NCBI GenBank assembly: GCA_963664295.1
Contig: OY760935.1
Location: 544,001-608,000, forward strand
Direction of reading: 5' to 3'
Length of the DNA stretch: 64,000 nucleotides
From: Candidatus Altimarinota bacterium
GTDB lineage: Bacteria; Patescibacteriota; Gracilibacteria; CAIRYL01; GCA-016699755
The notes under the pieces are model-generated. The model worked only from the letters and a program-made list of their open reading frames with translations, had not been told where the DNA came from and made no database searches. This document shows positions 1,141 through 62,717 of the stretch, piece by piece (the first letter of the stretch is position 1; the number at the start of each line of letters is the position of its first letter). The translations under genes and the position numbers were made by a program.

Positions 1141-1384
1141 CCACTCCGCGCCCTCGTTATTCACTCGGTCGCTCCGTTGCGGGTCGTAATTCTCGCTAAG
1201 CAATTGGAGCGGGTAACGGGAGCTTTTTTGCTTCGCAAAAAACTTCCTCCTCGTCCTCGGAAAGTTCAAAATAAATTTTTCACTTTCACTCGGACTGCGT
1301 CGTCAACGAACCCGAGGCTTCGAGGTAGCCATTTCCTGCTTAACAATGAAATAACCTTGTGGCTTCGCCACAAGAACATTTCAT
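1141..1384 (-). repeat. tRNA-Gly downstream structured module with duplicated tRNA 3' end
   Basis: 17-bp copy of the tRNA 3' end (TCCCGTTACCCGCTCCA) at 1205-1221, 180 bp from the gene; several GC-rich hairpins in between. Confidence 0.8.
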
Positions 1385-1460
1385 TGGAGCGGGTAACGGG
1401 ACTCGAACCCGTGCCGCCGGCTTGGAAGGCCGGAGCTCTAGCCAACTGAGCTATACCCGC
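1385..1460 (-). tRNA. tRNA-Gly(TCC)
   Basis: Cloverleaf GCGGGTA..CCGGC-CT-TCC-AA-GCCGG..GGTTCGAGTCC..TACCCGC-T-CCA. Confidence 0.97.
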
Positions 1461-1556
1461 TTACTTAAGTCAGCAAGCCATATTTTACCTTTTGAAATAA
1501 AATTTGCAAGCTTTTTTTAGCTTACAATAAATCATTGCAATTCAATTCTTGACCAA

Positions 1557-3524
1557 CTAATCTTTAAGCATTTTTATTAGTTCATCAATAGTTTTATTTT
1601 GAGCATCTTCTCTTCTTAATTTGCGCAATAAATTTCCATTAATTATCACTCCTCTATCACCTAAATCGGATAAAACATCTATATATTGCTCATCTTTTGC
1701 TTTTTCTAGTGTAAGTTCTCTCACTAAATAACCATCAATTTCTATGCCTACATCACGAAGTTCTTTTAAGGCATCCAAATAAACTTGATCATTTGCTTTT
1801 TCTTGTGTAAGTTCGCTCACTAAATAGCCATCAGTTTCTATGCCTACATCACGAAGTTCTTTTAAGGCATCCAAATAAACTTGATCATTTGCTTTTTCTG
1901 TTAATTCTTCTGTGGATAAACTTAATACGTTAATATCAACACTTACTCCTCCTGCTTGCAATTGCCTTAAGGCATCTAGATATTCTTTATTACTAACTGT
2001 TTCTCTATTAAGCCTGCCTACAAAAAGACCATTAATTCTTATGCCTGCTTCGTTAAGATCTTTTAAGGCATTCACATAGCGTTCATCACTAAGCTTTTCC
2101 AGGGTTAAATAATTTAATAACAATTTAGCAGAAGAATTAATAGCTATGCCTGATTTATGTAAGTCTATTAAAGCATCAACATAAACCGTATTTTTAACAT
2201 TTTTTGGTATTAAATTCATAAAATTATACCCACTAACAACAACTCCTCCTTCTCGAAGTCTTATTAGTCCATCAATATATTCTTGATCCTCGGCAGTCTC
2301 TTGTGTCAATTCAGAAGCAACAACACCATCAACATTCACCCCTGCTCTTTGCAAAGAAACTAAAGCCTCTACAAAGGTGGGTATACTAGCTTTTTTTGGT
2401 GTCAAATTACTTATTAAATATCCACTAATATATAAATTAGCGTTTTGAAGCTCAATTAAAGTTTGTATGTAATCAATATTTTGACCTTTTTCTAAAGATA
2501 ATTCATCTACTAAATTGAAATTAATGTCCACTCCGGCATTTTTAAGTGCTATTAAAGCTTTTATATAATCACTATTTTTGCCTTTTTCTGGAATTAATTT
2601 TTCTATTAAACGCTCATCAATGTCTATCTTTGCTAAAGATAATTCTCTTAACATGTTTAAATAAGTCTCATCTTCAAAAATTTTACTTGTTTTTAAATAA
2701 GACATAAGCTCATCACTAAACTCACTAGGATCTATTCCTGCTTGGTAAAGATTTTTAAGTAATTTAATATAATCCTTATCTCTCACTAGCTCTAGCGACA
2801 AACGATCTATAAAAAAACTATTAACCAATGCTCCTGCTTGAATTAGGTCCTCTAAGACAATCATGTAAATTTTATCTTTGGCTTTTTCTAGTGTTAAGGC
2901 CTCTATTAAAAATCCATCAATTTTCACTCCTGCTTTTTGTAGCTTAATTAAAACTCTTATATAAACATTGTCTTTGGCTTTTTCTAGTGTTAAAGAGCTT
3001 ATAAAAAAAGCATTAATATCTATTCCTAGTTTATGAAAACTTTTTAAGATTTTAATATAAGTATTATCTTTGAATTTTTCTAAAGTTAAAGCATCAATAA
3101 AAAAATAAGTAATTTTTACACCTAATTTAGAAAACTCCATTAAAGCATTGATATAAGCATTATTTTTGGCTTTTTCTGGAGTTAAAGCATATATAATATC
3201 ATCATTAATTTCTATTCCCGCTTGATTAAACCTTACTAAAACATCAATGTATTTTTCATTGGCTCTTTTTGGAAAATTTTTTGTTAAAAATTTTCTATAA
3301 TAAGAAACAAATAAATCAGGATTATCTTTTAAGATTTTATTAAAAATAAGCAAAAATTTATCTTGAGCATCATAATCTTCTACTTGGTCAATTTGCTCAC
3401 GAACCTTAAACATTTTTTGAGAAATTTTTTCCTGCAAAACTTCATTGGTTTTTTCAGATTTTTCTAATTCTTGCTTAACTTGAGCAATTTTTTCTTCAAC
3501 GCCTTTAAAGCTTTCATTTACCAC
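1557..3524 (-). CDS. Hypothetical protein with about 17 tandem 32-aa helical repeats
   Basis: 655-aa ORF; N-terminal coiled coil then repeats of consensus xLTxEKAxDxxYIxALxxLxxAGVxIxxxLIx; near-identical 96-bp-period DNA duplication around 1741-1899. Confidence 0.85.
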   Translation of the reverse strand: MVNESFKGVEEKIAQVKQELEKSEKTNEVLQEKISQKMFKVREQIDQVEDYDAQDKFLLIFNKILKDNPDLFVSYYRKFLTKNFPKRANEKYIDVLVRFNQAGIEINDDIIYALTPEKAKNNAYINALMEFSKLGVKITYFFIDALTLEKFKDNTYIKILKSFHKLGIDINAFFISSLTLEKAKDNVYIRVLIKLQKAGVKIDGFLIEALTLEKAKDKIYMIVLEDLIQAGALVNSFFIDRLSLELVRDKDYIKLLKNLYQAGIDPSEFSDELMSYLKTSKIFEDETYLNMLRELSLAKIDIDERLIEKLIPEKGKNSDYIKALIALKNAGVDINFNLVDELSLEKGQNIDYIQTLIELQNANLYISGYLISNLTPKKASIPTFVEALVSLQRAGVNVDGVVASELTQETAEDQEYIDGLIRLREGGVVVSGYNFMNLIPKNVKNTVYVDALIDLHKSGIAINSSAKLLLNYLTLEKLSDERYVNALKDLNEAGIRINGLFVGRLNRETVSNKEYLDALRQLQAGGVSVDINVLSLSTEELTEKANDQVYLDALKELRDVGIETDGYLVSELTQEKANDQVYLDALKELRDVGIEIDGYLVRELTLEKAKDEQYIDVLSDLGDRGVIINGNLLRKLRREDAQNKTIDELIKMLKD

Positions 3525-3720
3525 TTTTTTAATTCAAATTTGTTAATTTTAATTTTTGTTCTAATAGCTCCAAATCGTGCAAAGCCTTGGTTAATCTTTG
3601 GTGTTTTATTTTATTTCTCTGAGTTTTATTTTTTATTGCACAAATTTCCTGTTCTTCTTTTTTGTTATCTGTCATTATTTATATAATAATTCTTATTATT
3701 ATAACATAAAAAGATAAAAT

Positions 3721-4014
3721 ATGCAAAAACCTATGAAAAAAAATAAATACCCACAACAAATTGAGGCCGAGCTTGATTTACATGGCTTAACCAAGGAAGA
3801 ATCTAAAAACAAAACCCTTACTTTTCTTGTTAGTTGCAAGAAAAATAAATTCAAAACTGTGCAAATAATTACTGGCAAAGGTATTCATTCTAAAAATGGC
3901 AGTATTTTAAAACCATTTATCGAAAATTTACTTAAAAAAGAGGGTTATTTTTTTGAAACAGCAAAAATAAACGAAGGTGGCTCTGGAGCTATTAAAATTA
4001 AACTCAATTATTGA
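3721..4014 (+). CDS. Small Smr/MutS2 C-terminal domain protein
   Basis: LDLHG, IITGKGxHS and NEGGSGA motifs. Confidence 0.9.
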   Translation: MQKPMKKNKYPQQIEAELDLHGLTKEESKNKTLTFLVSCKKNKFKTVQIITGKGIHSKNGSILKPFIENLLKKEGYFFETAKINEGGSGAIKIKLNY

Positions 4015-6632
4015 ATTATTCCTAGCCTATCTTCTATTTCCTGATCTACAAATATTCTTTTTCTACCATTTTTCATGCGGGAATATTTTTTTACTATTTC
4101 TGCTATTTTTTCGTTTTTTCCTGTTTCGTCCCAAATTGTTTCAAGCGAAAATGGTCTTGAAGTTGTATTGTCTATATTTAGTTTTATATACGCTTTGTAA
4201 TTAGCTATTCCGAGAATATCTTGTTCTGATAATACTGGTGCATATTCTTTTGCTAGGTATTCTGCATCTTCGGCACCAACTTTGAAGCTCATTATTGAGC
4301 CCACATTACCAAACACTGCATCTCGCAATTTTGATTGTTTTTCATAATTTTGAGTTGTTTGAAGCTGAGCTATATACTGATGAGCCATTATCAAGGACAA
4401 ATGATATTTTCTAGCCTCTGAGAGTATGTCTGCAAAGGCATCTGTGGCAAAATTTTGAAACTCATCTACATAAAGGAAAAAATCTCGTCTTTCTTTTTCT
4501 GGCATATCTGCCCTACTCATGGCTGCCATTGATATTTTATTTACAAAAATCAAACCGAGCAATTGCGCGTTAATATCACCAATCATACCTTTTGAAAGGT
4601 TTACTAATAATATTTTTCCTTCGTCCATTATTTTTCTGATATCAAATGCACTTTTTGGTTGTCCAATAATATTACGCATTGTTGTATTTGTTATGAATGG
4701 ACCGAATTTACTTGAAAAATAAGGTATCATTTCTTCTTTTTCTCTGGCTCCGGTTTTTGCCATTTCATTATCCCAAAACTGACGTACTACTGTGTTTTTA
4801 CACTTTGAAACTTTGTATTTTTGAAACGCATCATCAACAAAAAGTCTTGGCAAATCAATTAAGGTTGCTCCCTCTTCTTCGTCGTCCATCAGAGTTAAAC
4901 AACCATTGCGAAAATAGTGCTGAATTCTTGGTCCAAATATCTCATTGCCAAATAATTTAATAAAAATATTCATAGCATCAAGACTAGCTCTGTCTTTTTG
5001 CTCGTCTGATTTTGCTTCCAACAAATTAAGTCCCATTGGTCTTTCTGTATCCGCTGGATTAAACACTATTACGTCTTTTGCTCTTTCTTTTGGTACATAA
5101 CAAAGAATATCTTCAATTAGGTCACCATGAGGATCAACCACACAAACGCCTTCTCCATTTTGAATATCCTGACGAGCCATGTATGACAACAGTGCGGACT
5201 TACCAGCACCAGATTTACCAACTATGTAATGATGACGTGAGCGATCTTTTTTCTTCATGCACACTTTTTTCTCAACAGCTCTGTATCTATTAATACCTAA
5301 AACAATCCCCTCTTCTGGTAAATCTATTGGCGGTGGAAGAACTTTATACTTAAGCCATTTTATGATTGGAATTCTATTATAACGAGAATCTGGAAAATGA
5401 AATATTGTAGCCAGTTCTTCAGGCACCATAAGTGATGGTTTTTTCTGAAAAAAGTACCAGCTCAATCTCCTTGTAAAGGCGTGCTTAATAAGTGGAGCAT
5501 TAAGAACATTTAAAGGTATATGCCTACGATTTTCAAAATAATTAGCAGCATCATCACGCACAGAACCGAAAGCAGCCACAAGATTGTTTAAAATATGCTC
5601 TACTCGAATTGCAGTTTTTGAGCTAGCAACAACGCGAATAATAGTATCAAAACCAACTTGAGTTGATTTTTCACCAATTCTTTTTGCAACCTCTTCTCTG
5701 GTTTGCAACATACGAATATATGAGTCACCACCTGATGCACCAGGCTGATTTGTGCTTGCGCCTATTGCGCCTGCCTTATCAGGCCCAAAGATTAAAGTAG
5801 CAAATCCAGACCAAATCCAGCCAAAAATAGGAATATTTTGAAAAAATCCTGTTTTTTGCCTTTTAAACATGGCAGTACCAAATTTTTCTGCTTTTTTTTG
5901 CCAACCTTTTGGTCGAGGATTTATTATGATCTGAATTGCTGCTTTTTCATCTTCTTCTAGCTTTGAAAGTGCATTTGTAAGATCATTAAGGGGATCATTT
6001 TCTATGTTCTTATAAGTTTTTATTGGAAACCAATTTTTTTCTTTTAAATAAAGATAAAATCCATTAAAAAAATATTTCTTTGGTCGAATTTGATATTGTT
6101 TTTCTATTGTTATTTCTGCGTCGGGATAAAAACTGGTTATTTGTTTTTCAACTATGTTTTGGTAATACCTATCTGTGACAACATAGAAATAAAGCTCGTT
6201 ATTTTCCAAAAACATTTCAAAAGAAATTTTATCATTTTGAAAAATAGCTGTTTTGATTGTATTCCAAAGGTTTAATTCACTTATTTCATAAACCGCACGA
6301 AAAAATTGCTCTGCTATTGCTAATTTTTCCTTAAAGTCTTTTTCTGTGCGTTTTTCTTGGTCTATTTTTGAGTCACTACGAGGCAGGGTCACTTTCATAT
6401 AAACCATATTTTTTGCTTCATGTTCGGCATAAAAAAGCCGACCAAGCAAGATAGTCATTTCAAAAACAAAGAAGACTGTAAGAATATTAAGCACAAAAGC
6501 CAATGGATCTGCTTTTATATGACCCCAAACTAATAAAAAATGTTCAAGCTGAAAAAGCCAACCTAAAAACGCCCAAATAGTTGTTGCTATTGCGAGTAAT
6601 AACCAGCGAAGGCGAAAGGCAATTTTAATCAT
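4008..6632 (-). CDS. Membrane-anchored VirD4/TrwB/HerA-like ATPase (CPR-type T4SS coupling-like protein)
   Basis: N-terminal TM helices; Walker A GKSGAGKS; VVDPHGDL; Walker B LYVDEFQNF; SEARKY.LSLIMAHQ. Confidence 0.85.
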   Translation of the reverse strand: MIKIAFRLRWLLLAIATTIWAFLGWLFQLEHFLLVWGHIKADPLAFVLNILTVFFVFEMTILLGRLFYAEHEAKNMVYMKVTLPRSDSKIDQEKRTEKDFKEKLAIAEQFFRAVYEISELNLWNTIKTAIFQNDKISFEMFLENNELYFYVVTDRYYQNIVEKQITSFYPDAEITIEKQYQIRPKKYFFNGFYLYLKEKNWFPIKTYKNIENDPLNDLTNALSKLEEDEKAAIQIIINPRPKGWQKKAEKFGTAMFKRQKTGFFQNIPIFGWIWSGFATLIFGPDKAGAIGASTNQPGASGGDSYIRMLQTREEVAKRIGEKSTQVGFDTIIRVVASSKTAIRVEHILNNLVAAFGSVRDDAANYFENRRHIPLNVLNAPLIKHAFTRRLSWYFFQKKPSLMVPEELATIFHFPDSRYNRIPIIKWLKYKVLPPPIDLPEEGIVLGINRYRAVEKKVCMKKKDRSRHHYIVGKSGAGKSALLSYMARQDIQNGEGVCVVDPHGDLIEDILCYVPKERAKDVIVFNPADTERPMGLNLLEAKSDEQKDRASLDAMNIFIKLFGNEIFGPRIQHYFRNGCLTLMDDEEEGATLIDLPRLFVDDAFQKYKVSKCKNTVVRQFWDNEMAKTGAREKEEMIPYFSSKFGPFITNTTMRNIIGQPKSAFDIRKIMDEGKILLVNLSKGMIGDINAQLLGLIFVNKISMAAMSRADMPEKERRDFFLYVDEFQNFATDAFADILSEARKYHLSLIMAHQYIAQLQTTQNYEKQSKLRDAVFGNVGSIMSFKVGAEDAEYLAKEYAPVLSEQDILGIANYKAYIKLNIDNTTSRPFSLETIWDETGKNEKIAEIVKKYSRMKNGRKRIFVDQEIEDRLGIIQ

Positions 6633-6764
6633 TTTTTATTTTTGTTTCCAAATAAACACAATTTATTCATTAAATTATATCATTTTCAATATAAAAAATA
6701 AAGCTATTTATGCTTATTTATTACTTATTTTCTTACTGTTTATTGAACAAATTTTTTATACAAA

Positions 6765-7124
6765 TTAAGCTAAATCAGGAACAGCAAAGTTCATAAACAA
6801 AACAGTTAAAAACAAAATAAAAGAAATAATGATTAAAACAGCATCAACCATTGGAGCTTCAACTAGTTCGTCCTTTTTTTTCTGATCAAAAGAAGAAAGT
6901 TGCTCATTAACAGAAATCCTTAAAGAAGTAAGAGCAAAAAGAATTCCAACTAGTGCAAATGGAATATCAGCAAGACGCAAAAAAATCTCTGAAGAATAAG
7001 AATAAAAATTATTTTTATAAAAAAGATAAGCAATAAGCATTGCTGAGCCTATTATAAAAAATAATAATTCCGACGCCGTATGTAAATTTCGTAAAAATTT
7101 CATCTGTATAAAATTCTCACACAA
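6765..7124 (-). CDS. Hypothetical membrane protein (about 3 TM)
   Basis: 119-aa ORF with three hydrophobic segments filling the intergenic gap. Confidence 0.7.
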   Translation of the reverse strand: MCENFIQMKFLRNLHTASELLFFIIGSAMLIAYLFYKNNFYSYSSEIFLRLADIPFALVGILFALTSLRISVNEQLSSFDQKKKDELVEAPMVDAVLIIISFILFLTVLFMNFAVPDLA

Positions 7125-7189
7125 AATATTTTATTTGAAAAGACAAGTTTACCTTGAAAAACAAAAGGCTTTTATGGCAAAATCAGTAT

Positions 7190-7474
7190 ATGTTATCAGA
7201 AAAAGAAATACGGCATATTGCCCACCTCGCCCGCCTTGGGCTCACTGACAAAGAGGTAAAAAAATACACCCAAGAGCTTAGTGATATATTGGGTTATTTA
7301 GAAAAATTAAATGAACTTGATGTTTCACAGGTTGAACAAATTGGTCAAATTACTGATCTGAAAAATGTAACCAGAGAAGACAATGTTGAACCTTCTGATT
7401 TTGCAAAAGATCTTTTGAATTCAAGTTCAAACGAAATTCAAGATTCGCACATTAAAGTAAAAAACGTATTTTAA
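7190..7474 (+). CDS. gatC: Asp/Glu-tRNA amidotransferase subunit C
   Basis: IRHIAHLARL..ELSDILGYLEKLNELD..TRED; directly upstream of gatA; ATG 7190 preferred over TTG 7154. Confidence 0.95.
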   Translation: MLSEKEIRHIAHLARLGLTDKEVKKYTQELSDILGYLEKLNELDVSQVEQIGQITDLKNVTREDNVEPSDFAKDLLNSSSNEIQDSHIKVKNVF

Positions 7475-7478
7475 AAAA

Positions 7479-8924: not shown

Positions 8925-8926
8925 AA

Positions 8927-13368: not shown

Positions 13369-13443
13369 GGGTGAGTAGCTCAGTGGTAGAGCAGTAGCCT
13401 TTTAAGCTATTGGCCGTGGGTTCGATCCCCACCTCACCCACCA
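13369..13443 (+). tRNA. tRNA-Lys(TTT)
   Basis: GGGTGAG..GTAGC-CT-TTT-AA-GCTAT..GGTTCGATCC..CTCACCC-A-CCA; TTGACT/TAAAAT promoter at 13320-13347. Confidence 0.97.
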
Positions 13444-13632
13444 TTAAAAAAACAGTCCTGCAAAGCAGGAGTGGTCTTTTAATTATGAGTTGGGAGCGAG
13501 CACACAGCCATCTAATTAGCCCGTGGGTGCGGTCTGCAGTGGAGGGCTTTTGCGAAGCAAAACCCGAAACAAAAGACTCGATCCCCACCTCACCCACCAT
13601 TTGAAATGTTCTCATGCGAAACATGAGGTTTT
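13444..13632 (+). repeat. tRNA-Lys downstream module with duplicated tRNA 3' end
   Basis: TCGATCCCCACCTCACCCACCA repeated at 13578-13599 (156-bp period), flanked by hairpins. Confidence 0.8.
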
Positions 13633-15161: not shown

Positions 15162-15236
15162 GGCCCGTTCGTCTAGTGGTTAGGACGCCGCCCTCTCACG
15201 GCAGAAACAGGGGTTCGATTCCCCTACGGGCTACCA
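15162..15236 (+). tRNA. tRNA-Glu(CTC)
   Basis: GGCCCGT..CCGCC-CT-CTC-AC-GGCAG..AGGGGTTCGATTCCCCT-ACGGGCT-A-CCA. Confidence 0.95.
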
Positions 15237-15476
15237 TTGCTTTTAAAGGCGTCCGTGATAATTAGTCGCTGCCCTTGAACCCAGAAACAGGGGTTCGATT
15301 CCCCTACGGGCTACCATTGCTTTTAAAGGCGTCCGTGATAATTAGTCGCTGCCCTTGAACCCAGAAACAGGGGTTCGATTCCCCTACGGGCTACCATTGC
15401 TTTTAAAGGCGTCCGTGATAATTAGTCGCTGCCCTTGAACCCAGAAACAGGGGTTCGATTCCCCTACGGGCTACCA
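15237..15476 (+). repeat. Three identical 80-bp tandem units, each ending in the 35-nt 3' part of tRNA-Glu
   Basis: Units at 15237-15316, 15317-15396 and 15397-15476. Confidence 0.95.
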
Positions 15477-24656: not shown

Positions 24657-26160
<1,504 letters not shown>

Positions 26161-35204: not shown

Positions 35205-35234
35205 AAAAAGCTCGAGTATTACTCGGGTTTTTTT
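35205..35234 (+). terminator. Intrinsic terminator
   Basis: AAAAAGCTCGAGTA-T-TACTCGGGTTTTTTT. Confidence 0.75.
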
Positions 35235-35280
35235 GTTGCTTTCTGTTGTTACGGATGAGCGAACTTAGTTGCTCACCTAT

Positions 35281-35785
35281 TCTGTCATTCTGAGCGGAGT
35301 GAAATGGAGCGAAGAATCTCCTTGTCCATGCGCTCAATCCCTATCTTGTCATTGTGGACTTTTTGGGTTGTCATTGCGGACTTGATCCGCAATCTCGGGA
35401 GGTGTCATTCTGAACGAGCCCGCCTTTTTTTGTCATTATCGGACTTGATCCGATAATCCAGAGAATCATGTCATTGCGGACTTTTTAGGTTGTCATTACG
35501 GGCTTTTTGGAGTGTCATTGCGGACTTGATCCGCAATCTCCTTGTCCATGTGCTCAAGTCCTGCCTTAGGTAATTGTGCATTAATGACAACGGGAGATCC
35601 TGAATCGAGTTCAGGATGACATACTATTTTTGTCATTCTGAGCGGAGTGAAATAGAACGAAGAATCTCCTTGTCCATTCGCCCAAGTCCTGCCTTGGGCA
35701 ATTCAACAGTAATGACAACGGGAGATCCTTCGCTTCGCCTAAAGGCTCGCTCAGGATGACAAAGTAAGGAGAGCTCAAAATGACA
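35281..35785. repeat. REP/REPIN-like cluster 2
   Basis: About a dozen TGTCATT/ATGACA-tagged units; full 131-bp inverted element at 35631-35761, hybrid at 35513-35621. Confidence 0.9.
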
Positions 35786-43167: not shown

Positions 43168-43570
43168 TGTCATTCTGATGGAATGAAATCACCTTTTTTG
43201 TCATTCTGAGCGGAAAACACAACCTTTCTGTCATTCTGAGCGTAATGAAATGGAGCGAAGAATCTCCTTGTCCATGCGCTCAAGTCCTGCCTTAGGTAAT
43301 TCAACAGTAATGACAACGGGAGATCCTTCGCTTCGCCTAAAGGCTCGCTCAGGATGACAGAATAAGGGGGATGGATGACATTACATTTGTCATTGTGGAT
43401 TTCTTGAAGGTGTCATTATGAGCTTTTTGGGGGTGTCGTTGCGGGCTACGACCCGCAATCTCGGGAGGCAGGAGGTGTCATTCTGAGCGTAAAACACACC
43501 CTTACTGTCATTCTGAGCGAAGTGAAATGGAGCGAAGAATCTCCTTTTCCATTTGCTCAAGTCTTGCCTA
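43168..43570. repeat. REP/REPIN-like cluster 3
   Basis: Multiple TGTCATTCTGAGCG units; 131-bp element at 43229-43359 is nearly identical to 35631-35761. Confidence 0.9.
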
Positions 43571-45455: not shown

Positions 45456-46433
45456 TTAAGAGGTATTTTTGATAAATACTTTAAGTAATTCAATAAAACC
45501 ATAAGTATTTACAAAATAATTATTTTTATTTTTTTTTAAATTTTGCAAAATATTTTTTCTTTGCTCAAATGGCTTACCACTTTTTATTGCTTCATTTGCT
45601 AATAAGTTAAAATAAATACCATCCAAAAAAGAAATATAGTGAACATCTTTATCTTGATGTGATATAAAATCTATAATCTCAGACATTTGCTTATCTTGAC
45701 CACCTCCAGACTCTTTCATGTGTTTATGCTCCATAATAAGAATATGGTCATTAATTTTGATTAAAAAGTCTGTCTGTTTTTTCTGCTTATTTTTTGACCA
45801 CTTAAATTTTAACTTAAAATGTTTTAATATTTTTTCAAACAAAATCTTGTCTGCTTTGTCAGGACATATATAAATATGATTACTTTTAATAAATTCATCT
45901 ATATTTTTTGATGAAAAATATGAAAATCCAAACTGATTCAAGATATTTATAATTTTTTTATTTGCAGCATTGCCATTACCTTTATGTGCTTTTGAGTCTT
46001 TGATCGCCTGCAACGAAGAAAATGAATAACCGTGAATTTTATACAACAAGTGTCTATCTTTTATAAATTCTGGTATTACATTTTTTAAAAACTCAATTTG
46101 TATAAAATGATTTGAATTAAATGTTTTATAAGCACTATATGACATATCTTTCAATGCCCAATAACTTGTAAATTCAGTATTATTTATTCCAGATGTTTTT
46201 AAAATTTTTACAATATTCTCCAATATAATATTTTGCATTTTTTTATTTTTTGACTTAATAGCAATTTTATATGCAGCAATGTTGTCACATATTTCCACAT
46301 TGGATTTCATTAAGTTGTTTAGCTTTTTTGGATTGTCAGTAATTATCGGCTTACTATCTTTTACATAATATTCATCAATATAAGATTCTTTATTTTTTAT
46401 GCTTAAGCTAAAAATTTGAATATTACTAATCAT
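45456..46433 (-). CDS. Putative type II restriction endonuclease (PD-(D/E)xK-like)
   Basis: TD..EHK..ESGGGQDKQ pattern; directly downstream of a DNA MTase; very AT-rich. Confidence 0.65.
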   Translation of the reverse strand: MISNIQIFSLSIKNKESYIDEYYVKDSKPIITDNPKKLNNLMKSNVEICDNIAAYKIAIKSKNKKMQNIILENIVKILKTSGINNTEFTSYWALKDMSYSAYKTFNSNHFIQIEFLKNVIPEFIKDRHLLYKIHGYSFSSLQAIKDSKAHKGNGNAANKKIINILNQFGFSYFSSKNIDEFIKSNHIYICPDKADKILFEKILKHFKLKFKWSKNKQKKQTDFLIKINDHILIMEHKHMKESGGGQDKQMSEIIDFISHQDKDVHYISFLDGIYFNLLANEAIKSGKPFEQRKNILQNLKKNKNNYFVNTYGFIELLKVFIKNTS

Positions 46434-46444
46434 AATTTAAGTTA

Positions 46445-47455
46445 TTAAAATAATTTTACACTTGGCATAACTTTTTCATAAGCTTCTTCTAAGATAGCTC
46501 TTGCTGTTTGATAATCTAACCTTCTTCTTCTTTCGCCATTTTTTTTATTACCTTTAAATGGCGAAAGAAGAAGATCATTAGTTTTTAATCTAAAACTAAA
46601 TAGTATTTGATTACTTTTTTTAATTATCTTTTCAATTGCTTCTTCGTCTGCTTTCATTTCAATTAAAGTTATCAATCTTGAGCTAACTTTTATTGTACTA
46701 AGATCATAATCAATCTCTTCTGGTTTCATAAACTGAATTAACTTTTTTGTGCTTGTTGTGTCTACTGCCCTCAATGCTATTTGCCCTCTAGATGAATTAA
46801 ATCTTATATCAATATGTTTTTGTGGTATTTTTCTCATTTTTTCTATTTCTGCAAAATTACCAATATACTTATCATTTTTATAAACTTTTATTTGACTATA
46901 ATCTTTATTTTTATTATCAAAACAAATTACACATACAGGATTTTCTGTGTCAAAAAACATTAAATCCTCAATTATTGTAATATTTTGTATTCTGTGTTTT
47001 GGAAACGATGAATTAATAAATGTTTCTGGGACTATCATTACTCCAAAATCATTATTCTCCATACACCTGCTAATTGCTAATTGATATAAATCATTATAAG
47101 AACACATATTAAAATATTTACTAACTCCGTCATAAATGCCTTTTCTTTTTGCGCTATAGTTTGTTAAGTACGGCGGATTAGTGATAATTATAGAGTTTTT
47201 TATTCTGGGAATATGTTCTAAGCTATTATTAAATTTCCAACCCAAAAATTCATCTATATCTAAACCAACAACTTTTGAAAAACCTATTTTTTTAGCAATA
47301 TTTAATAAATCTCCATTGCCAGCAAATGGATCAAAAGCTATTTCTGCTTTAGTAGACTTAATAAAACCTAAAACATGATCTTTTAACCAAAAATGTTTTT
47401 TTGTAAAAAACTGACCCAAACTTTTCTTTTTTGCAATTATACTCATTAACTTCAT
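46445..47455 (-). CDS. Amino (N6A-type) DNA methyltransferase, gamma motif order
   Basis: LGQFFT (motif X), FDPFAGNG (motif I), ITNPPY (motif IV). Confidence 0.88.
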   Translation of the reverse strand: MKLMSIIAKKKSLGQFFTKKHFWLKDHVLGFIKSTKAEIAFDPFAGNGDLLNIAKKIGFSKVVGLDIDEFLGWKFNNSLEHIPRIKNSIIITNPPYLTNYSAKRKGIYDGVSKYFNMCSYNDLYQLAISRCMENNDFGVMIVPETFINSSFPKHRIQNITIIEDLMFFDTENPVCVICFDNKNKDYSQIKVYKNDKYIGNFAEIEKMRKIPQKHIDIRFNSSRGQIALRAVDTTSTKKLIQFMKPEEIDYDLSTIKVSSRLITLIEMKADEEAIEKIIKKSNQILFSFRLKTNDLLLSPFKGNKKNGERRRRLDYQTARAILEEAYEKVMPSVKLF

Positions 47456-47492: not shown

Positions 47493-47577
47493 TGGTGGGC
47501 AGTGAGGGATTCGAACCCCCGAACTCAGAGAGAGCAGATTTACAGTCTGCCGCCGTTGACCGCTTGGCTAACTGCCC
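47493..47577 (-). tRNA. tRNA-Tyr(GTA)
   Basis: GGGCAGT..GCAGA-CT-GTA-AA-TCTGC, long variable arm, GGTTCGAATCC, ACTGCCC-A-CCA. Confidence 0.97.
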
Positions 47578-47825
47578 ACGATTATATAATTTATTGCTAA
47601 TTTTTAAGTTTCTGGAGAACAGTTGCTAAGTCTGCACGGGTTGACCGCTTGGCTAACTGCCCACGATTATATAATTTATTGCTAATTTTTAAGTTTCTGG
47701 AGAACAGTTGCTAAGTCTGCACGGGTTGACCGCTTGGCTAACTGCCCACGATTATATAATTTATTGCTAATTTTTAAGTTTCTGGAGAACAGTTTGCAAA
47801 ATTTATACAAAATTCTAACTGCTCT
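47555..47825 (-). repeat. About 2.8 tandem 85-bp units containing the tRNA-Tyr 5' part
   Basis: Period 85 (47555, 47640, 47725); units form CCA-ended hairpins. Confidence 0.92.
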
Positions 47826-47840: not shown

Positions 47841-47915
47841 TGGAGCCAGCACTCGGATTCGAACCGAGGACCTGCCGCTTACAAGGCGGATGCTCTACCA
47901 CTGAGCTATGCTGGC
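47841..47915 (-). tRNA. tRNA-Thr(TGT)
   Basis: GCCAGCA..CCGC-CT-TGT-AA-GCGG..GGTTCGAATCC..TGCTGGC-T-CCA. Confidence 0.97.
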
Positions 47916-55130: not shown

Positions 55131-55144
55131 AATAATTTAAAAAC

Positions 55145-55357: not shown

Positions 55358-55359
55358 AT

Positions 55360-56516: not shown

Positions 56517-56564
56517 TTTTTATTCAAAAAACGCTTGTTAATTTTCCATGTTTTTAAAAACTAG

Positions 56565-57422
56565 TCAAACCAAAACCTCTTGTTCAACTGGTATTTTTCT
56601 TACTCTCAAGATAAAAGTAAGTCTTAAAATTATAAATAAAACAGAAGAAAGAGCACTAATAACAACTGAAAAAAGCAAAGAAAAAGGAGCCAAAACTGCA
56701 AAAATAACAAAACCAAAAAAAGCAGAAAGAGGAAAATCTACAAATTCCTCAAACTGTTTTTCAATTTGATATTTTAAAACTGATTCTTTGCCGATGTTTT
56801 CATTTTGATCAATGCCAAATTCTGCAAAAATTTTATTTTTCGCCTCTGTGAGTATGCTTTTTTCACAATTTTTGTTCCCCTGACATTCAGTTAAAAGTGG
56901 CTCTGTTTTAGTATCAACAAGCTCGTCAAAAGTCATATCAGTTAAACCTTTTTCTCCGCCAAATTCAATATTTGTTAATAAATCAGTTCCATCAAGTGCC
57001 AATTTTTTAATATCATCATAAGTAGTATTAAATGCTACAAAAATAGCTAAAATTAAAGCAGATAAAATAAAAGTTTGACTCAAAGCAGATCTAACACTTT
57101 TTTGATAATCTATTTTAATACGCAAAGCAAAATCTCGCCTAACAGCAAAAAACAAAAACGCCATTGGCAAGCCAATAAACAAAGACAAAGGCACAAAAAT
57201 ATCAATAACAAAATCAAGAATTAACCACAACAAAGGAAAAAACAAAGAAAGCCAGGTTTTTTGCGTAAAAGAAGCCAAAAAAATCACCACACAAATATGC
57301 GCAAAAAATAAAACTAAAATTAACCAAAAACTCAAAAAATAACTTATTGCAACATAAAAACCCAAAACAGTTAAAGTTGCTATAAATAAAAATGAATATT
57401 CTTTTTTGCTTAATGGCTCCAT
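56565..57422 (-). CDS. Hypothetical multi-TM membrane protein
   Basis: 285 aa with at least 5 hydrophobic segments. Confidence 0.75.
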   Translation of the reverse strand: MEPLSKKEYSFLFIATLTVLGFYVAISYFLSFWLILVLFFAHICVVIFLASFTQKTWLSLFFPLLWLILDFVIDIFVPLSLFIGLPMAFLFFAVRRDFALRIKIDYQKSVRSALSQTFILSALILAIFVAFNTTYDDIKKLALDGTDLLTNIEFGGEKGLTDMTFDELVDTKTEPLLTECQGNKNCEKSILTEAKNKIFAEFGIDQNENIGKESVLKYQIEKQFEEFVDFPLSAFFGFVIFAVLAPFSLLFSVVISALSSVLFIILRLTFILRVRKIPVEQEVLV

Positions 57423-57522
57423 AAATTATTTTAAACTTCAAAAAAGATTGTAAATTATGAAATTTAGATTGTCTATAAAAGAGTTTTATGTAAAATAAAA
57501 TATATATTTTTTATAGATAAAA

Positions 57523-57987
57523 ATGGAAAAAACATTAATTATTATCAAACCTGATGGTGTACAAAGAGGTTTAGTCGGCGAAGTGACTCGCAGATTAGAA
57601 CGCAAGGGGCTTAAGCTTGTTGGCATGAAAATGATGAACCTTGAAGAAGCAATGCTTGCTGATCATTATTCTCATTTAAAAGACAAACCTTTCTTTGGCG
57701 GTATTGTGAATTTCATGAAAAGTTCACCTGTTGTTGTGCAATGCTGGGAAGGAAAAGATGCATCTAATGCTGTGCGTTTAATTTGTGGTATTACTAATGC
57801 CCGTGAAGCAGACGGAGGAACAATTCGTGGTGATTTTGCTATGAGTATGCAATGTAATGTTGTTCATGCTTCTGATAGTGCTGAAAATGCTAAAAAAGAA
57901 GTTGCAAGATTTTTTAAACCAGAAGAAATATTTGAATACAAAAAAGACGAATATATTCATGTTTACGCAGAAGACGAAAGAAAATAA
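57523..57987 (+). CDS. ndk: Nucleoside-diphosphate kinase
   Basis: IIKPDGVQRGL, GTIRGDF, NVVHASDS. Confidence 0.98.
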   Translation: MEKTLIIIKPDGVQRGLVGEVTRRLERKGLKLVGMKMMNLEEAMLADHYSHLKDKPFFGGIVNFMKSSPVVVQCWEGKDASNAVRLICGITNAREADGGTIRGDFAMSMQCNVVHASDSAENAKKEVARFFKPEEIFEYKKDEYIHVYAEDERK

Positions 57988-58015
57988 TAAAGCTTTAAGC
58001 TAGCAAGTCGAACAT

Positions 58016-58043
58016 AAAAACCGTTTTTTAAAAGCGGTTTTTT
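58016..58043 (+). terminator. Intrinsic terminator after ndk
   Basis: AAAAACCGTTTTT-T-AAAAGCGGTTTTTT. Confidence 0.75.
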
Positions 58044-58094
58044 ATTGACATAAAATAATCTTATGTTTAAGTTATATATAAAATTTTATTTATT

Positions 58095-58322
58095 ATGAAA
58101 AAAACGCCAAGCAAACCAGATATAATAAATCCTGAACAAAAAATAGTTGATAATCTTTCTCAAGATGCAATAAATCAAATGAATTTAATGATGCAAGCAA
58201 CAACAATTGACGCAATAACTGCCTACGCAATTGTCACAGAAGACGCAAAAGATAAACTTGACCCAGATAGGCTTTTTGAAAATCTTATGGCAAAAATCAC
58301 AAAAGCCTTACCTGAAATTTAA
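58095..58322 (+). CDS. Small hypothetical protein
   Basis: 75-aa ORF with TTGACA at 58045; Pro-rich N-terminus. Confidence 0.6.
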   Translation: MKKTPSKPDIINPEQKIVDNLSQDAINQMNLMMQATTIDAITAYAIVTEDAKDKLDPDRLFENLMAKITKALPEI

Positions 58323-58431
58323 TTAAAAAACTAAAAATTTGTTATATTAAAGCCATTTTTACAAAAAACTTCCAAAAATAATTTGCAAAATTTTGTTTTT
58401 TATGTAAGAATTTTATGAACTTTAAAAATTT

Positions 58432-60210
58432 ATGAAAAAATTAGACAATTGGATTAAAGATACTCTTGATCCAAAAAACAAAAAAATAAATAAGAGTAAA
58501 AAAAATATAAAAAACCCTAAAAAATTCAGACCAAAAAAACCTAAAAAAATGCGTATTATTGCATTAGGTGGTTTAAATGAAGTTGGTAAAAACTGCATGG
58601 CCTTTGAATATGGTAATGACATTGTGGTTGTTGACACAGGGCTACAGTTTCCTGAAGAAGATATGCTGGGAATTGATTTTGTAATTCCTGACATGACCTA
58701 CCTTGAGGACAATAAACAAAAAATTCGTGCGCTGATTGTCACCCATGGGCATTTAGATCATATTGGCGCAGTCCCCCACTTTCTAAAAAAATTTCCTGAT
58801 ATCCCAGTAATAGCCACAAAACTAACAATTGGTATGATTCAAAAACACAGCGAGGAATATAAAATTAAAAACACCAAACTAAGAACAGTTGATCCAGAAA
58901 AAGACACTGTTGAAATAGGTTCTTTTAAAATTTCATTTTTTAGAGTAAACCATTCTATTCCTGATGGCATGGGGGTTTTCTTTGAAACTCCAGCAGGCAA
59001 TTTTATGCATACTGGTGATTTTAAGTTTGATTTTCGCCCTGCAGACGGGATTATGATGGACATTGGACAGCTAGCCAGAATTGGCAAAAAAGGAGTTGAT
59101 GTGCTTTTTGCAGACTCAACTAATGCACAAAAAAAAGGCTACTGCATGTCTGAATATGTAATTGCTAAAAACCTGGAACAAGTTATTGCTCAAGCAAAAG
59201 GCAGGTTAATTATTGCTTCTTTTTCTTCACTAATTGGCAGACTACAACAAATAGCAGATATAGCTATTAAAGAAGACCGTAAAATTTTTATTTCTGGTCG
59301 TAGTATGCTAAAAAATATAGAATTAGCAGTAAAACTTGGTTATTTTAAAGTACCAAAAGGCGTAATCCATAAACTATCCTCAAAAAATCTTGATTTGCCA
59401 CCAAACAAAGTGCTAATTCTAACTACAGGTTCACAAGGAGAGTCTATGAGCGCCTTAACTCGCATATCACTAGACGAACATCCACATATTAAAATACAAA
59501 AAGGAGATACAGTTGTGTTTTCATCTTCTCCTATTCCAGGCAATGAACGTTCTACAACAAATGTAGTTAATAATCTTTTTCGCCTTGGTGCTCATGTGAT
59601 AACTAATGACGCAATGGATGTGCACACATCAGGTCATGCCCACAAAGAAGACTTAAAAATGATGCAGTCTATTGTGAAACCACGCTATACTGTGCCAATT
59701 CACGGTGAATTTTATATGCGCATGGCTCACAAAGAAATGCTAATCAATGAATATGGACTAGAAGAAAAACAAGTTGTTATCTTAGAAAATGGCTCAATTT
59801 TAGAAATTGAAAATGGCTATGCTCGCAAATCAAAAGAGAAAGCATCAGCAAACCTAATTATGATTGACGGAATTGGTGTTGGAGATGTTGGCACCAGAGT
59901 TATTCGTGATCGCCAAGTAATGTCTGAAAATGGTGTTGTTATTGCCCTTTTCCGTGCTTTTGAAAAATCAAAAAGATTAGTTGGTGACCCAGATATAATC
60001 TCCCGAGGATTTATATATATCAAAGAAAGCAAACAAGTAGCAGAAGAAGCACGCGAAAGAGCACGCAAAGCTTTTGAAGAAACAATAAAGAAAAATCCAA
60101 AAGCAGATCTAAAAACTATTAAACATGATGTTGCTCGTAGCTTGCGTACTTTTATAGCTAAACGACTTGCTCGTGAACCAATGGTGATACCTTTGATAGT
60201 TTTTGTTTAA
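58432..60210 (+). CDS. rnj: Ribonuclease J
   Basis: LGGLNEVGKN, THGHLDHIG, HTGDFK, TGSQGE, HTSGH, PIHGE. Confidence 0.97.
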   Translation: MKKLDNWIKDTLDPKNKKINKSKKNIKNPKKFRPKKPKKMRIIALGGLNEVGKNCMAFEYGNDIVVVDTGLQFPEEDMLGIDFVIPDMTYLEDNKQKIRALIVTHGHLDHIGAVPHFLKKFPDIPVIATKLTIGMIQKHSEEYKIKNTKLRTVDPEKDTVEIGSFKISFFRVNHSIPDGMGVFFETPAGNFMHTGDFKFDFRPADGIMMDIGQLARIGKKGVDVLFADSTNAQKKGYCMSEYVIAKNLEQVIAQAKGRLIIASFSSLIGRLQQIADIAIKEDRKIFISGRSMLKNIELAVKLGYFKVPKGVIHKLSSKNLDLPPNKVLILTTGSQGESMSALTRISLDEHPHIKIQKGDTVVFSSSPIPGNERSTTNVVNNLFRLGAHVITNDAMDVHTSGHAHKEDLKMMQSIVKPRYTVPIHGEFYMRMAHKEMLINEYGLEEKQVVILENGSILEIENGYARKSKEKASANLIMIDGIGVGDVGTRVIRDRQVMSENGVVIALFRAFEKSKRLVGDPDIISRGFIYIKESKQVAEEARERARKAFEETIKKNPKADLKTIKHDVARSLRTFIAKRLAREPMVIPLIVFV

Positions 60211-60757
60211 AATTGTGAAAAAACTTATTATTACTGCCCATCCCAGCAAGGAAGGATTTACTCATCAAATCGCCCTTGCTTTTGAAAATGAAAGCAAAAA
60301 AATGGGATATGAAACAAAAATCCTTGATTTATATCAAGAAAAACAGGAGTTTTTAAGTTTTAATACAGAAAAAGACCTTTATCAAAAGCCACAAACAGAT
60401 TTAATTAACTGGGCAGATGAATTTGTTTTTGTTTTTCCTATTTGGTGGTACAGCGCACCTGCTGTTGTTAAAAATTTTTTTGATGCCAATTTTGTAGCAG
60501 GACTTGCTTATAAATATGAACACGGCATACCAAAAGGCTTATTTAAAAACAAAACTGTAAGATTTTTGACCACCAGTGGAGGCCCGCCACTTTTCTATTA
60601 TCTCCGTCTTGCGCCCACTATTGGTCTTTGGAAAAGTAGATTTAGATTTTGTGGAATTAAAACAAAATCATTTTCAGTATTTGGACCAAAGTCAAAACGC
60701 ACACCTGAGATAATAGAAAAACAATTAAAAAAAGTGCGTAAAATAGCAAGAAAGTAA
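60203..60757 (+). CDS. Flavodoxin-like NAD(P)H dehydrogenase (Flavodoxin_2)
   Basis: AHP...F, DLY, FPIWWYSAPAVVKNFFD, TTSGG. Confidence 0.88.
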   Translation: MFKIVKKLIITAHPSKEGFTHQIALAFENESKKMGYETKILDLYQEKQEFLSFNTEKDLYQKPQTDLINWADEFVFVFPIWWYSAPAVVKNFFDANFVAGLAYKYEHGIPKGLFKNKTVRFLTTSGGPPLFYYLRLAPTIGLWKSRFRFCGIKTKSFSVFGPKSKRTPEIIEKQLKKVRKIARK

Positions 60758-60760
60758 AAA

Positions 60761-61423
60761 TTATACACTCACCACCTTCAGCTTTCCTTTAACTTTAAGA
60801 TTATCTTTGTCTTTTTCTTGCCATTCAAAATCAATTTCTTGACCCAAATCATCAGCGTTCATAAGAAGATTTTCCTGCATTTTTTCCTGCGATGGAATAG
60901 CACAATAAATCGTTTTTTGCGCTTGTAGCTCAGGAAAAGCAAGCACACTCTCAAAAGAAAAAGATAATTTTTCATTATCCAGCGTAATTAACATTGTACC
61001 TTTTTTGTTTAATTCAGCGTCTTCTTTGCCGTCTTCGCTATATAACTCTAACTTTTTAGTGCTAATTTTATCCACAACAGCAATACATCTAGGTTTTCCT
61101 AATTGTTCAGCAACTTGCTTTTGTTCTTCCTTGCTTAAATCCGCACCTAAACCGCTCAAAAGAGAGGCTATATCGCCTCCCTGAGCTTTTAAAATACTCT
61201 CCAAATCAGCCAAAAATTCAATTTGGCTATCAACTTTATATTGATGACCTTCAATATTTGCTAATAATTCCACATCAACAACAATGCGATGACTTGGGCT
61301 CATGTCCTCTGCAACTTGCTGGCCAGCTTGGTTCATAGCACCAAGCCCGCCAGAGTAAGCATCTTGCAAATCTTCCATTGCATCACCAAGGGCGCCAAAA
61401 TCTATACCAAAAGGGTTGTTCAT
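60761..61423 (-). CDS. Hypothetical acidic protein
   Basis: 220-aa ORF 9 bp downstream of the lipoprotein gene. Confidence 0.75.
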   Translation of the reverse strand: MNNPFGIDFGALGDAMEDLQDAYSGGLGAMNQAGQQVAEDMSPSHRIVVDVELLANIEGHQYKVDSQIEFLADLESILKAQGGDIASLLSGLGADLSKEEQKQVAEQLGKPRCIAVVDKISTKKLELYSEDGKEDAELNKKGTMLITLDNEKLSFSFESVLAFPELQAQKTIYCAIPSQEKMQENLLMNADDLGQEIDFEWQEKDKDNLKVKGKLKVVSV

Positions 61424-61432
61424 AAATAAAAG

Positions 61433-61981
61433 CTATTGTTGAGCTTTTCGAACCATAATTTGAACTTGTTTATATTCTTTGTCGTGTGATACAGAAATTG
61501 TGTATTTACCTTCAAATTTGCCATTCAAAGTATTAGTCACAGACATAACAGATGCTGACCAACCTGCATCTTCTAAATCAGCTTCATATTTCTCCAAAGC
61601 ATCTTCATCAACTTCATCAAAATCAACAATCCAAGAGCCCATACCACTTACATTTTCCTGAGCAGAGCCATATTTAAACTCTGGCACCTCAGAAGGCATA
61701 TCACTTGGCCAAGAACCAGCTGTGCTATCATTAGAATTATATTTATCATCACTTTGATTCCACACACTATCTTTATCATTAGAAGCATCGCAATTTTTCT
61801 TGCACATAGCTACATTTTCACTACCTCCTCCCCATTCTTCACACTGCGCATAACATTCATTTTTTCCAAATTCATCATCATTTTGACCAGAAGCTTGCTC
61901 ATTTTCTTCAGCATGATGACAGCCAGCTAGAACAGCTGTAAATAAAGTCATAAAACAAAAAATTGCCAATGTTTTTTTCAT
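61433..61981 (-). CDS. Hypothetical lipoprotein
   Basis: MKK..LAGC lipobox; CxxxC..CxxxC; WPSDMPSEVP. Confidence 0.8.
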   Translation of the reverse strand: MKKTLAIFCFMTLFTAVLAGCHHAEENEQASGQNDDEFGKNECYAQCEEWGGGSENVAMCKKNCDASNDKDSVWNQSDDKYNSNDSTAGSWPSDMPSEVPEFKYGSAQENVSGMGSWIVDFDEVDEDALEKYEADLEDAGWSASVMSVTNTLNGKFEGKYTISVSHDKEYKQVQIMVRKAQQ

Positions 61982-62099
61982 TATAAATTTAAAAAATAAA
62001 AAAATATGGCTTTAATATACTCTTTTTTTGAATTTATGCAAAACTGTTTTTTTGAAATTTAAAAAACTAAACAAACATAATTACTAAAAAAATCCACCT

Positions 62100-62548
62100 A
62101 ATCCAATGAAAAATGCGAGCAAGCCTGAAACGCTCAGGTTTCCTACTCGAACCCACGGGTTCTTATCTCTGTTTCTCATTCGCAGGAGCAAAACCTCGTG
62201 CCTTTGGCACGAGAACTTGCTCCTGGCGGGACACTCGGGTCTCCTACCTTTTTGGGTAAAAATGAGAAGATGCAAAAAAATAGCGAACGCCAGTGAGCGA
62301 GAGGGGTGAATTGGGCGGGCGTGTACCGCCCAAGAGGGGCGACGCTAGCCCCTTATAATTGGCGGAGAGAACGGGATGCTCATTTTTTCGGAGCTTTGCT
62401 CCTCAAAAATAAGGCCTTCTGCGCTCGCTCGGAATTTTGCGCAAGCACAAATTCACTCGCTCGCTTGAGTGTCGAACCCACGGGTTCTTATCTCTGTTTC
62501 TCATTCGCAGGAGCAAAACCTCGTGCCTTTGGCACGAGAACTTGCTCC
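62100..62548 (-). repeat. tRNA-Ser downstream modules
   Basis: 18-bp tRNA 3' end copy at 62360-62377; 83-bp exact direct repeat at 62147-62229 and 62472-62554. Confidence 0.88.
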
Positions 62549-62636
62549 TGGCGGAGAGAACGGGATTCGAACCCGTGGTGACTTTCGCCACACACGCTTT
62601 CCAAGCGTGCGCATTCGACCACTCTGCCATCTCTCC
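62549..62636 (-). tRNA. tRNA-Ser(GGA)
   Basis: GGAGAGA..CACGC-TT-GGA-AA-GCGTG, long variable arm, GGTTCGAATCC, TCTCTCC-G-CCA. Confidence 0.97.
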
Positions 62637-62654
62637 TTAGTTTAATATTTTTTC

Positions 62655-62717
62655 TGACTTGCGCACGCTTGTTTTTTGCGTGCTCTATTCATATTGCGAC
62701 CACTCTGCCATCTCTCC
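62655..62717 (-). pseudogene. Degenerate upstream copy of the tRNA-Ser 5' portion
   Basis: First 21 nt identical; anticodon stem GCACGC/GCGTG kept with an A-rich loop; no T-arm. Confidence 0.7.

Follow-up and report, generated by a model that had tools for sequence, protein, structure and literature searches.

tRNA genes and their partial copies

We examined a 64 000 bp window (positions 544001–608000 of the 1.215 Mb single-contig genome OY760935.1, from a Candidatus Altimarinota bacterium of the class Gracilibacteria) in which tRNA genes are accompanied by partial copies of themselves. ARAGORN found six tRNA genes, and an Rfam scan of the window at the gathering threshold returned tRNAs and 16S rRNA only. 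Exact self-copies of 17–35 nt lie beside tRNA-Gly, tRNA-Lys, tRNA-Glu, tRNA-Tyr and tRNA-Ser, as a first-pass annotation made from the sequence had reported, and the longest self-match of the sixth, tRNA-Thr(TGT), is 11 nt. Behind tRNA-Gly, tRNA-Lys and tRNA-Ser, the copy closes a unit that also contains a degenerate antisense arm and a hairpin insert, a build shared with the RtT repeats (TLRs) of Escherichia coli. The features, in window coordinates, are as follows.

1052–1204, minus strand: trailer module, common to tRNA-Phe (94% over 157 nt), tRNA-Lys(CTT) and, in part, tRNA-Glu
1205–1221, minus strand: Gly unit, exact 17 nt copy of the tRNA 3' end with CCA
1222–1306, minus strand: Gly unit, hairpin insert at the T-loop position
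1307–1345, minus strand: Gly unit, degenerate antisense arm and short hairpin to the 5' half of the T-loop; weak cognate match (rank 7 of 28)
1346–1384, minus strand: Gly unit, terminator-like hairpin with a GAA triloop
1385–1460, minus strand: tRNA-Gly(TCC), from the tRNA search
13369–13443, plus strand: tRNA-Lys(TTT), ARAGORN
13444–13482, plus strand: Lys unit, terminator-like hairpin with a 3 nt loop
13483–13528, plus strand: Lys unit, antisense arm, TAAT-containing loop, sense variable loop and 5' strand of the T-stem; own-tRNA match (rank 1 of 28)
13529–13577, plus strand: Lys unit, hairpin insert; the unit is 97.5% identical over 119 nt to that of tRNA-Lys(CTT)
13578–13599, plus strand: Lys unit, exact 22 nt copy of the tRNA 3' end
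15162–15236, plus strand: tRNA-Glu(CTC), ARAGORN
15237–15476, plus strand: three perfect 80 bp units, each closing with a copy of the 35 nt 3' end of tRNA-Glu and without a stable fold (z 0.0)
47493–47577, minus strand: tRNA-Tyr(GTA), ARAGORN
47578–47794, minus strand: Tyr upstream 85 bp units, with the first 23 nt of tRNA-Tyr, an altered anticodon arm and a leader
47841–47915, minus strand: tRNA-Thr(TGT), without self-copy
62147–62359, minus strand: trailer module common to tmRNA and tRNA-Lys(CTT), then a second, truncated cassette (62147–62229)
62360–62548, minus strand: Ser RtT-like cassette (31.6 bits with covariance model R1, see below), made up of an 18 nt 3' copy (62360–62377), a 95 nt insert (62378–62472), an antisense arm with short hairpin (62473–62509) and a hairpin (62510–62548)
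62549–62636, minus strand: tRNA-Ser(GGA), ARAGORN
62637–62717, minus strand: Ser upstream unit, in which the 21 nt 5' end of tRNA-Ser precedes an anticodon-stem-like hairpin whose loop is A-rich

Including the end of the gene itself, the Glu array spans 15202–15476 with a period of 80 bp. The 5' copies of tRNA-Tyr lie at 47640–47662 and 47725–47747 (period 85 bp) and that of tRNA-Ser at 62697–62717. An 83 nt segment is also duplicated at the Ser locus (62147–62229 and 62472–62554). Genome-wide, a self-match of ≥12 nt lies no more than 400 nt away from 20 of the 37 tRNAs, compared with 3 of 3000 random 400 nt windows. The copies are downstream of 16 tRNAs and upstream of 8, including 4 with both, and an antisense arm was also found behind tmRNA. 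Such a density in a reduced 1.2 Mb genome points either to strong spreading or to a useful role, for example as att-site decoys.

Misassembly was considered because no long reads were available, and the runs used for checking (X1–X3) are possibly the genome's own sample. In Logan contigs from these runs, unit-specific pieces were present at single-copy depth, and the Glu unit had a depth of 36 over a background of 9–12 (approximately 3–4 times), which fits its copy number. A contig from a second study spans 62411–62718 with 0 substitutions and one 11 nt insertion, though it stops short of the displaced copy, and the same build recurs in relatives and in E. coli. The self-copies are real, and an assembly artefact is very unlikely on the support of these short-read contigs, to the point that we give it almost no weight.

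Three builds

Three builds were distinguished. In type A, seen in the window at tRNA-Gly, tRNA-Lys and tRNA-Ser and represented genome-wide by 13 units with an exact 3' copy, the tRNA is followed by a terminator-like hairpin, a degenerate antisense copy of its own 3' half, a loop, the 5' strand of the T-stem in sense orientation, a hairpin insert of 50–100 nt and the remainder of the tRNA from the T-loop through CCA. The first hairpin has a 3 nt loop in 13 of 15 full or partial type A units. By eye, the arm and loop are present at tmRNA but the final copy is missing there, and the variant at tRNA-Lys(CTT) is divided in the D-loop instead. The TAAT loop was considered, by eye and without a promoter scan, as a sigma-70 promoter element; the idea was dropped as spacing and second base vary. 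Hairpin modules without a tRNA copy stand directly after the CCA of tRNA-Leu(GAG), tRNA-Met and tRNA-Thr(GGT) and after tmRNA (contig positions 97555, 844361, 1133476 and 748047, respectively), and are common to these different tRNAs and tmRNA.

Type B (tRNA-Glu, tRNA-His and tRNA-Phe) consists of perfect tandem tails of 80–85 bp with weak folds (z 0.0, 0.9 and −2.3, respectively) that, by eye, retain short antisense pieces. The Glu tails are likely decayed, amplified relatives of the downstream cassettes. In type C, found at tRNA-Tyr, tRNA-Ser and six others, upstream copies of the first 15–29 nt lead into an altered anticodon arm. The Tyr and Ser examples lack small hairpin plugs, and the Ser upstream build was detected elsewhere in 1 of 400 class genomes, that of the relative G004, four further matches being plain tRNAs. 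These upstream copies are likely a separate, mirror-image product, possibly made by a tRNA-linked GIY-YIG element. The single duplication system first envisaged had lumped the three builds and missed the antisense arm.

Inserts shared between different tRNAs

One insert core is present seven times in the genome, always behind a tRNA, with 58–63 of 63 positions identical. The sites are six tRNAs for four amino acids, namely Ser (three anticodons), Gln, Arg and Gly. A further insert, at tRNA-Gln(TTG), matches the core at only 26–28 of 63 positions and has a similar build. In the window, the hairpin regions of the Gly and Ser units match at 72% over 61 nt and a trailer motif is found behind both tRNA-Gly and tRNA-Glu, which bears out the earlier observation that the added material is common to several loci. 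The build recurs, with genome-specific inserts, in two relatives, G003 and G004; a third, G002, has few units. When the Ser unit was used as a DNA query against 60 relatives, essentially the tRNA part only was returned, apart from one weak match in G004, and the exact insert core had 0 matches in metagenome contigs. A 93% identical copy of the left half of the Gly unit, lying 4.9 kb downstream at contig positions 540367–540466, follows a coding gene and not a tRNA. At a Leclercia locus, one insert appears by eye to be nested in another, a hint that inserts move independently.

A neutral origin of the copies in local slippage or unequal crossing-over, with quasi-palindrome template switching keeping the arms complementary, would suit the perfect, weakly folded Glu, His and Phe arrays and the precise contraction of an E. 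coli array. It cannot yield one insert at six tRNAs, however, nor the divergent but structurally matching Gln(TTG) insert, nor the same junction across many phyla. Slippage is thus contradicted for type A, in agreement with the first-pass annotation, which had argued against independent slippage events, and is adequate for recent type B amplification; as a general explanation we consider it distinctly improbable.

Antisense arms track the neighbouring tRNA

Across 84 units, the arm forms 4.9 Watson–Crick pairs with its own tRNA, compared with 3.5 ± 0.15 expected, and for 28 units the score of arm against own tRNA is 23.2, compared with 17.1 ± 0.7. The own tRNA ranks first for 11 of 28 arms, and several arms have no own-tRNA match. 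In the outer stem, 69 cells have double changes, compared with 37 ± 6 in shuffles (0 of 500 reach the observed value), a covariation that is expected if the arms track different tRNAs. Absence of a shared motif or of covariation at other loci or in relatives, named in the first-pass annotation as grounds for giving up its proposal, is not what we found: there is a shared insert core, a covarying outer stem and the same build in relatives.

At the 7 positions that distinguish a tRNA from its copy, the arm is complementary to the tRNA base in 5 cases and to the copied base in 1. At tRNA-Ala(GGC) in G004, the arm fits the present gene and the displaced copy is a different allele, which suggests that the tRNA gene has been replaced.

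Relationship to the E. coli RtT/TLR repeats

PMC8144298 describes 22 TLRs in E. coli, known since 1978, with an 18–19 bp repeat and no known function; the RtT RNA (rttR) lies in the tyrT–tyrV operon and is covered by Rfam family RF00391. In the literature examined, RtT is treated as an RNA of unknown function. The literature searched, which did not extend to the original tyrT/TLR papers and supplements, gave no account of an antisense arm, a DNA role or members in Patescibacteria, and the current version of PMC10542128 is without an RtT passage.

The E. coli tyrT, serX and lysQ repeats, of which the serX units are annotated as RtT, have the same antisense arm, junction and hairpin insert as type A. 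As in the definition of TLRs, the Gly, Lys, Glu and Ser copies lie on the same strand directly downstream of a tRNA gene (TLRs may also follow rRNA genes), which the upstream Tyr and Ser copies do not, and the identical 3' ends, at 17, 22, 35 and 18 nt, respectively, compare with approximately 18–19 bp. One E. coli strain has four units at serX and another with the same flank has none, and contraction of an array in E. coli was precise.

A covariance model (R1) was built from 48 of 50 usable units, none of them from this genome. It scored E. coli rttR at 57 bits (52–58.5 bits for rttR and three other tyrT-region repeats), the serX RtT at 61.3 bits and five E. coli lys repeats at 19–22 bits. 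The Ser(GGA) unit in the window scored 31.6 bits (E 7.8e-6), and the top four matches genome-wide were all tRNA-adjacent units (Ser, two Gln and Arg). R1 had matches in 26 of 101 class genomes, some of which are the tRNA itself. Judged by this model, the Ser unit is distantly related to RtT; for Gly and Lys, the RtT-like type is assigned from anatomy only. The E. coli tyrT repeats, originally cited as a precedent, are hence more closely linked to the downstream type than had been supposed, both in anatomy, which extends to serX and the lys repeats, and through the R1 match.

A junction motif drawn from relatives returned at least 120 listed loci, from an estimated 1000 or so stretches. Among the matches listed were Proteobacteria, Bacteroidota, Verrucomicrobia, Fibrobacter, Chlorobi, Chlamydiae, Patescibacteria and one archaeon. 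ARAGORN placed a tRNA or tmRNA on the same strand within 450 nt upstream at 92 of the 120 listed loci, with short flanks at 40 loci. When 20 of the tRNA-adjacent listed loci were scanned with RF00391, 3 were above the Rfam threshold and 6 more below it. A pattern for the Lys-type build had 11 metagenome and 2 viral matches, none of them tRNA-adjacent, and this build was seen in the present genome and G004.

The units thus resemble RtT/TLRs (PMC8144298) in lying behind a tRNA on the same strand, often in tandem, with 17–22 nt of tRNA 3' identity, and R1 bridges the E. coli repeats to the Ser, two Gln and Arg units. They differ in that the insert sequences are unrelated, the density is far greater (16 of 37 tRNAs with downstream copies), and splits at other T-loop, D-loop and anticodon-loop positions as well as upstream copies occur that are absent from the TLR descriptions in the accessible text. 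The downstream type extends a known, unexplained family, to which the present analysis adds an anatomy, a wide distribution, a high density within one reduced genome and the ssDNA (single-stranded DNA) signature described next.

DNA-type loops and RNA-type folds

Hairpins with GNA triloops are unusually stable in DNA and are not known to be so in RNA. In a census of hairpins with stems of at least 3 bp on the tRNA-sense strand, 60 inserts contained 71 GNA triloops, compared with 5.1 in shuffles (approximately 14-fold) and 4 on the other strand. RNA-type loops were not enriched (GNRA, 3 compared with 4 expected; UUCG, 0). The 13 units of this genome have 12 GNA loops and 1 GNRA loop, and the 16S rRNA gene in the window, used as a control, has 2 GNA triloops in 1504 nt. 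Folding energies tell another story: the linear Ser unit has z −3.7 with RNA parameters and −0.8 with DNA parameters, although special terms for such DNA loops are apparently missing from the parameters. Strand-specific ssDNA hairpins are thus favoured by the loop census and not by the folding energies.

The units may instead act as RNA, with read-through transcripts folding into CCA tRNA-like ends that, once excised, would be processing signals, decoys or switches acting in antisense on the upstream tRNA, and with gene conversion spreading the inserts. The units are always on the tRNA-sense strand and CCA-ended, and the fold of the linear Ser unit is in keeping with this, as are the Rfam model, in which the arm pairs with the downstream copy, and PMC8144298, which reports transcription and processing of TLR RNAs in E. 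coli and a proposed role of the repeat as an RNase E signal. RtT is also up-regulated in the cold in Thioalkalivibrio (PMC8092127). Against an RNA role stand the loop census, the terminator-like hairpin that precedes most units, an arm that agrees with the upstream tRNA, and not with the downstream copy, at 5 of the 7 positions that discriminate between them, and an RtT share of 0.0008–0.0009% among the reads tabulated for one E. coli RNA-seq data set (PMC13010647). The mimic or decoy idea of the first-pass annotation is weakened by the DNA-type loops; we regard it as doubtful, though it keeps a real share of our belief.

A proposed route of insertion

We propose, with a probability of approximately 0.5, that the downstream units are gene-less RtT-like cassettes that probably work as folded ssDNA, which a putative enzyme would splice into tRNA loops. 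Observed are the anatomy, the matching of arms to tRNAs, near-identical inserts at different tRNAs, the DNA-type loops and the copy number variation in E. coli. In a circular form of the unit, its own tRNA 3'-end copy is predicted to pair with the antisense arm. This pairing would restore the T-arm and acceptor end in double-stranded form and leave the insert protruding from the T-loop, next to a predicted tandem G.A pair. A single strand exchange at the T-loop of the sense strand, exposed by transcription, would then give the order tRNA, unit, displaced 3' end, leaving the tRNA intact and allowing units to stack. Recombination between the direct repeats could expand or contract the arrays.

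Several results weigh against this proposal. Neither a circle nor a strand-transfer product nor an enzyme was observed. Circular folds of 13 long units have z from −2.5 to −5.3, but these values include the terminator-like hairpin and overstate the case for a circle, and the linear Ser unit folds better as RNA. Units accompany 9 of 24 co-directional and 6 of 13 head-on tRNAs, so there is no replication-strand bias and the exposed strand would have to come from transcription or DNA uptake, not from the lagging strand. Near-identical inserts can be accompanied by degenerate arms, a pattern that module swapping among old resident units would explain as well as fresh insertion, and the 5-to-1 preference of the arms for the tRNA fits plain decay of the copy too. 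RF00391 had no match in the genome (E ≤ 1) or at the Ser locus (E ≤ 10), R1 had none to the Gly, Lys or Glu units, which are linked by anatomy alone, and the invariant junction letters of the wide set are a product of the search pattern. In E. coli, RtT does exist as a processed RNA according to PMC8144298 and 10.1101/2024.07.17.603846, the library of the latter being blind to ssDNA by its authors' account.

The search for an enzyme was likewise negative for type A. Among 133 open reading frames (ORFs) adjoining units in other genomes (6 of 139 candidates, from three loci without a tRNA, were excluded), there was no integrase, GIY-YIG or Y1 transposase, and the genome itself had no match to a Y1 transposase, large serine recombinase, reverse transcriptase or IS110. 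The only tyrosine recombinase found in it, of 306 aa, is far from any unit. Of the trans-mobilised, tRNA-specialised element originally suggested, the idea survives as the best reading, but the enzyme or circular form was not found. Two ideas were abandoned. A backward joint (13601–13447) taken for a circle was rejected, as the tRNA-Lys(CTT) locus holds the same modules in that order, and retroviral-type priming by the tRNA 3' end was dropped because there is no RVT_1 match and the arms are degenerate. At tRNA-Asn in G004 and tRNA-Ala in G003, reading frames run antisense into the tRNA 3' ends; they look like what we take to be large serine recombinase C-termini.

Collapsed remnants of tyrosine-integrase islands, with att at the T-loop or 3' end, were also weighed. 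The 17–22 nt 3' repeats have the size of known tRNA att cores, and a methyltransferase and Tsp45I-like endonuclease pair lies directly behind tRNA-Tyr (window 45456–47455). Against this, no integrase is encoded near units (133 ORFs and five window loci), the lone recombinase being distant; viral contigs gave 0 strict motif matches and only 1 of 88 relaxed matches was tRNA-adjacent; and a conserved, covarying fold is unexpected in decaying remnants. We consider this origin highly improbable. The earlier statement that the sites lack integrase, transposase and nuclease ORFs holds for integrases and transposases at the five loci; for nucleases it is qualified by the restriction–modification pair behind tRNA-Tyr and, outside the window, by the GIY-YIG gene at tRNA-Pro.

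A GIY-YIG gene at tRNA-Pro

The first-pass annotation had recommended looking for versions that carry an ORF. Neighbours of RtT-type units provided none (0 of 133), but two identical 321 bp units upstream of tRNA-Pro (contig 482635–483400) each contain a hairpin-plugged pseudo-tRNA and an 82 aa GIY-YIG gene that begins right after the pseudo-tRNA, truncated in its T-arm. Among the best 30 loci matching the protein (one per genome, our own included), all 30 have a same-strand tRNA within 400 nt and most have hairpin-plugged partial tRNA copies. The gene is a lead for type C and, as a mover of type A, a candidate only.

All three builds could in principle be scars or gene-less derivatives of such a small, tRNA-lodged nuclease, nicking the folded ssDNA of tRNA genes and followed by break-and-copy repair. 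The tRNA-Pro repeat and the 30 tRNA-adjacent loci agree with this, and Ssn GIY-YIG proteins cleave ssDNA near hairpins (PMC11893778). It is nonetheless unlikely, given the absence of GIY-YIG genes beside RtT-type units, the lack of any match to the 82 aa protein in the unit-rich G003 and G004, and the lack of small hairpin plugs in the upstream Tyr and Ser units of the window. A second small GIY-YIG gene (contig 622611–622832) is flanked by REP-like repeats similar to clusters in the window and resembles the Ssn/SRM layout.

Extending the ssDNA cassette proposal, RtT/TLRs may be pan-bacterial, programmable, gene-less ssDNA elements. The arm would then be a long DNA guide that specifies which tRNA is targeted, and the folded circle would be spliced into the tRNA loop, with a swap of tRNA ends, by an enzyme that is encoded by the host or linked to a tRNA, perhaps a small GIY-YIG nuclease. 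We advance this broader version only tentatively and think it unlikely to hold in full.

Comparison with other systems

In CTXphi attP(+) and integron attC, as proposed here, a folded single strand rebuilds a double-stranded copy of the target with extruded bases, and one strand is exchanged. The units differ in having no dif or attC consensus and no known recombinase, and in a target, the tRNA gene, that differs from unit to unit. Integrative elements that use tRNA att sites also duplicate the tRNA 3' end and keep the gene intact, but the units are without integrase or cargo and have an antisense arm and a conserved fold.

REP/REPIN sequences with TnpA-REP and the ends of IS200/IS605 (PMC8266576) are gene-less, strand-specific ssDNA hairpins, as the units may be, with DNA–DNA pairing picking the target. 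The guides there are tetranucleotides, whereas the arms here are 15–30 nt and tRNA-specific; the Y1 enzyme was not found in the genome. Ssn GIY-YIG genes with NTS/SRM hairpins (PMC11893778) are small single-domain genes flanked by ssDNA hairpins, and one such locus is present in the genome. The accessible text of PMC11893778 has no mention of tRNA, whereas the tRNA-Pro gene is flanked by pseudo-tRNA copies. Hairpin-flanked GIY-YIG genes were found at none of the five window loci, and outside the window at tRNA-Pro and the one REP-like locus.

Should TLRs prove to act at the level of DNA, their present classification as RNA would be mistaken, a question that can be tested in E. coli K-12. An arm guiding its unit to the matching tRNA in one phylum after another would, if true, open a new way of integrating site-specifically at tRNA genes and account for the exchange of tRNA ends.

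Other features

Genomes of the class are 0.6–2.0 Mb, and some have an in-frame TGA within a protein match. The 16S rRNA gene of the window (24657–26160) has no 23S or 5S match elsewhere in it. A 655 aa ORF (1557–3524) contains 96 bp coding repeats and has no confident Pfam family. Clusters of REP-like hairpin repeats lie at 35230–35770 and 43199–43570.

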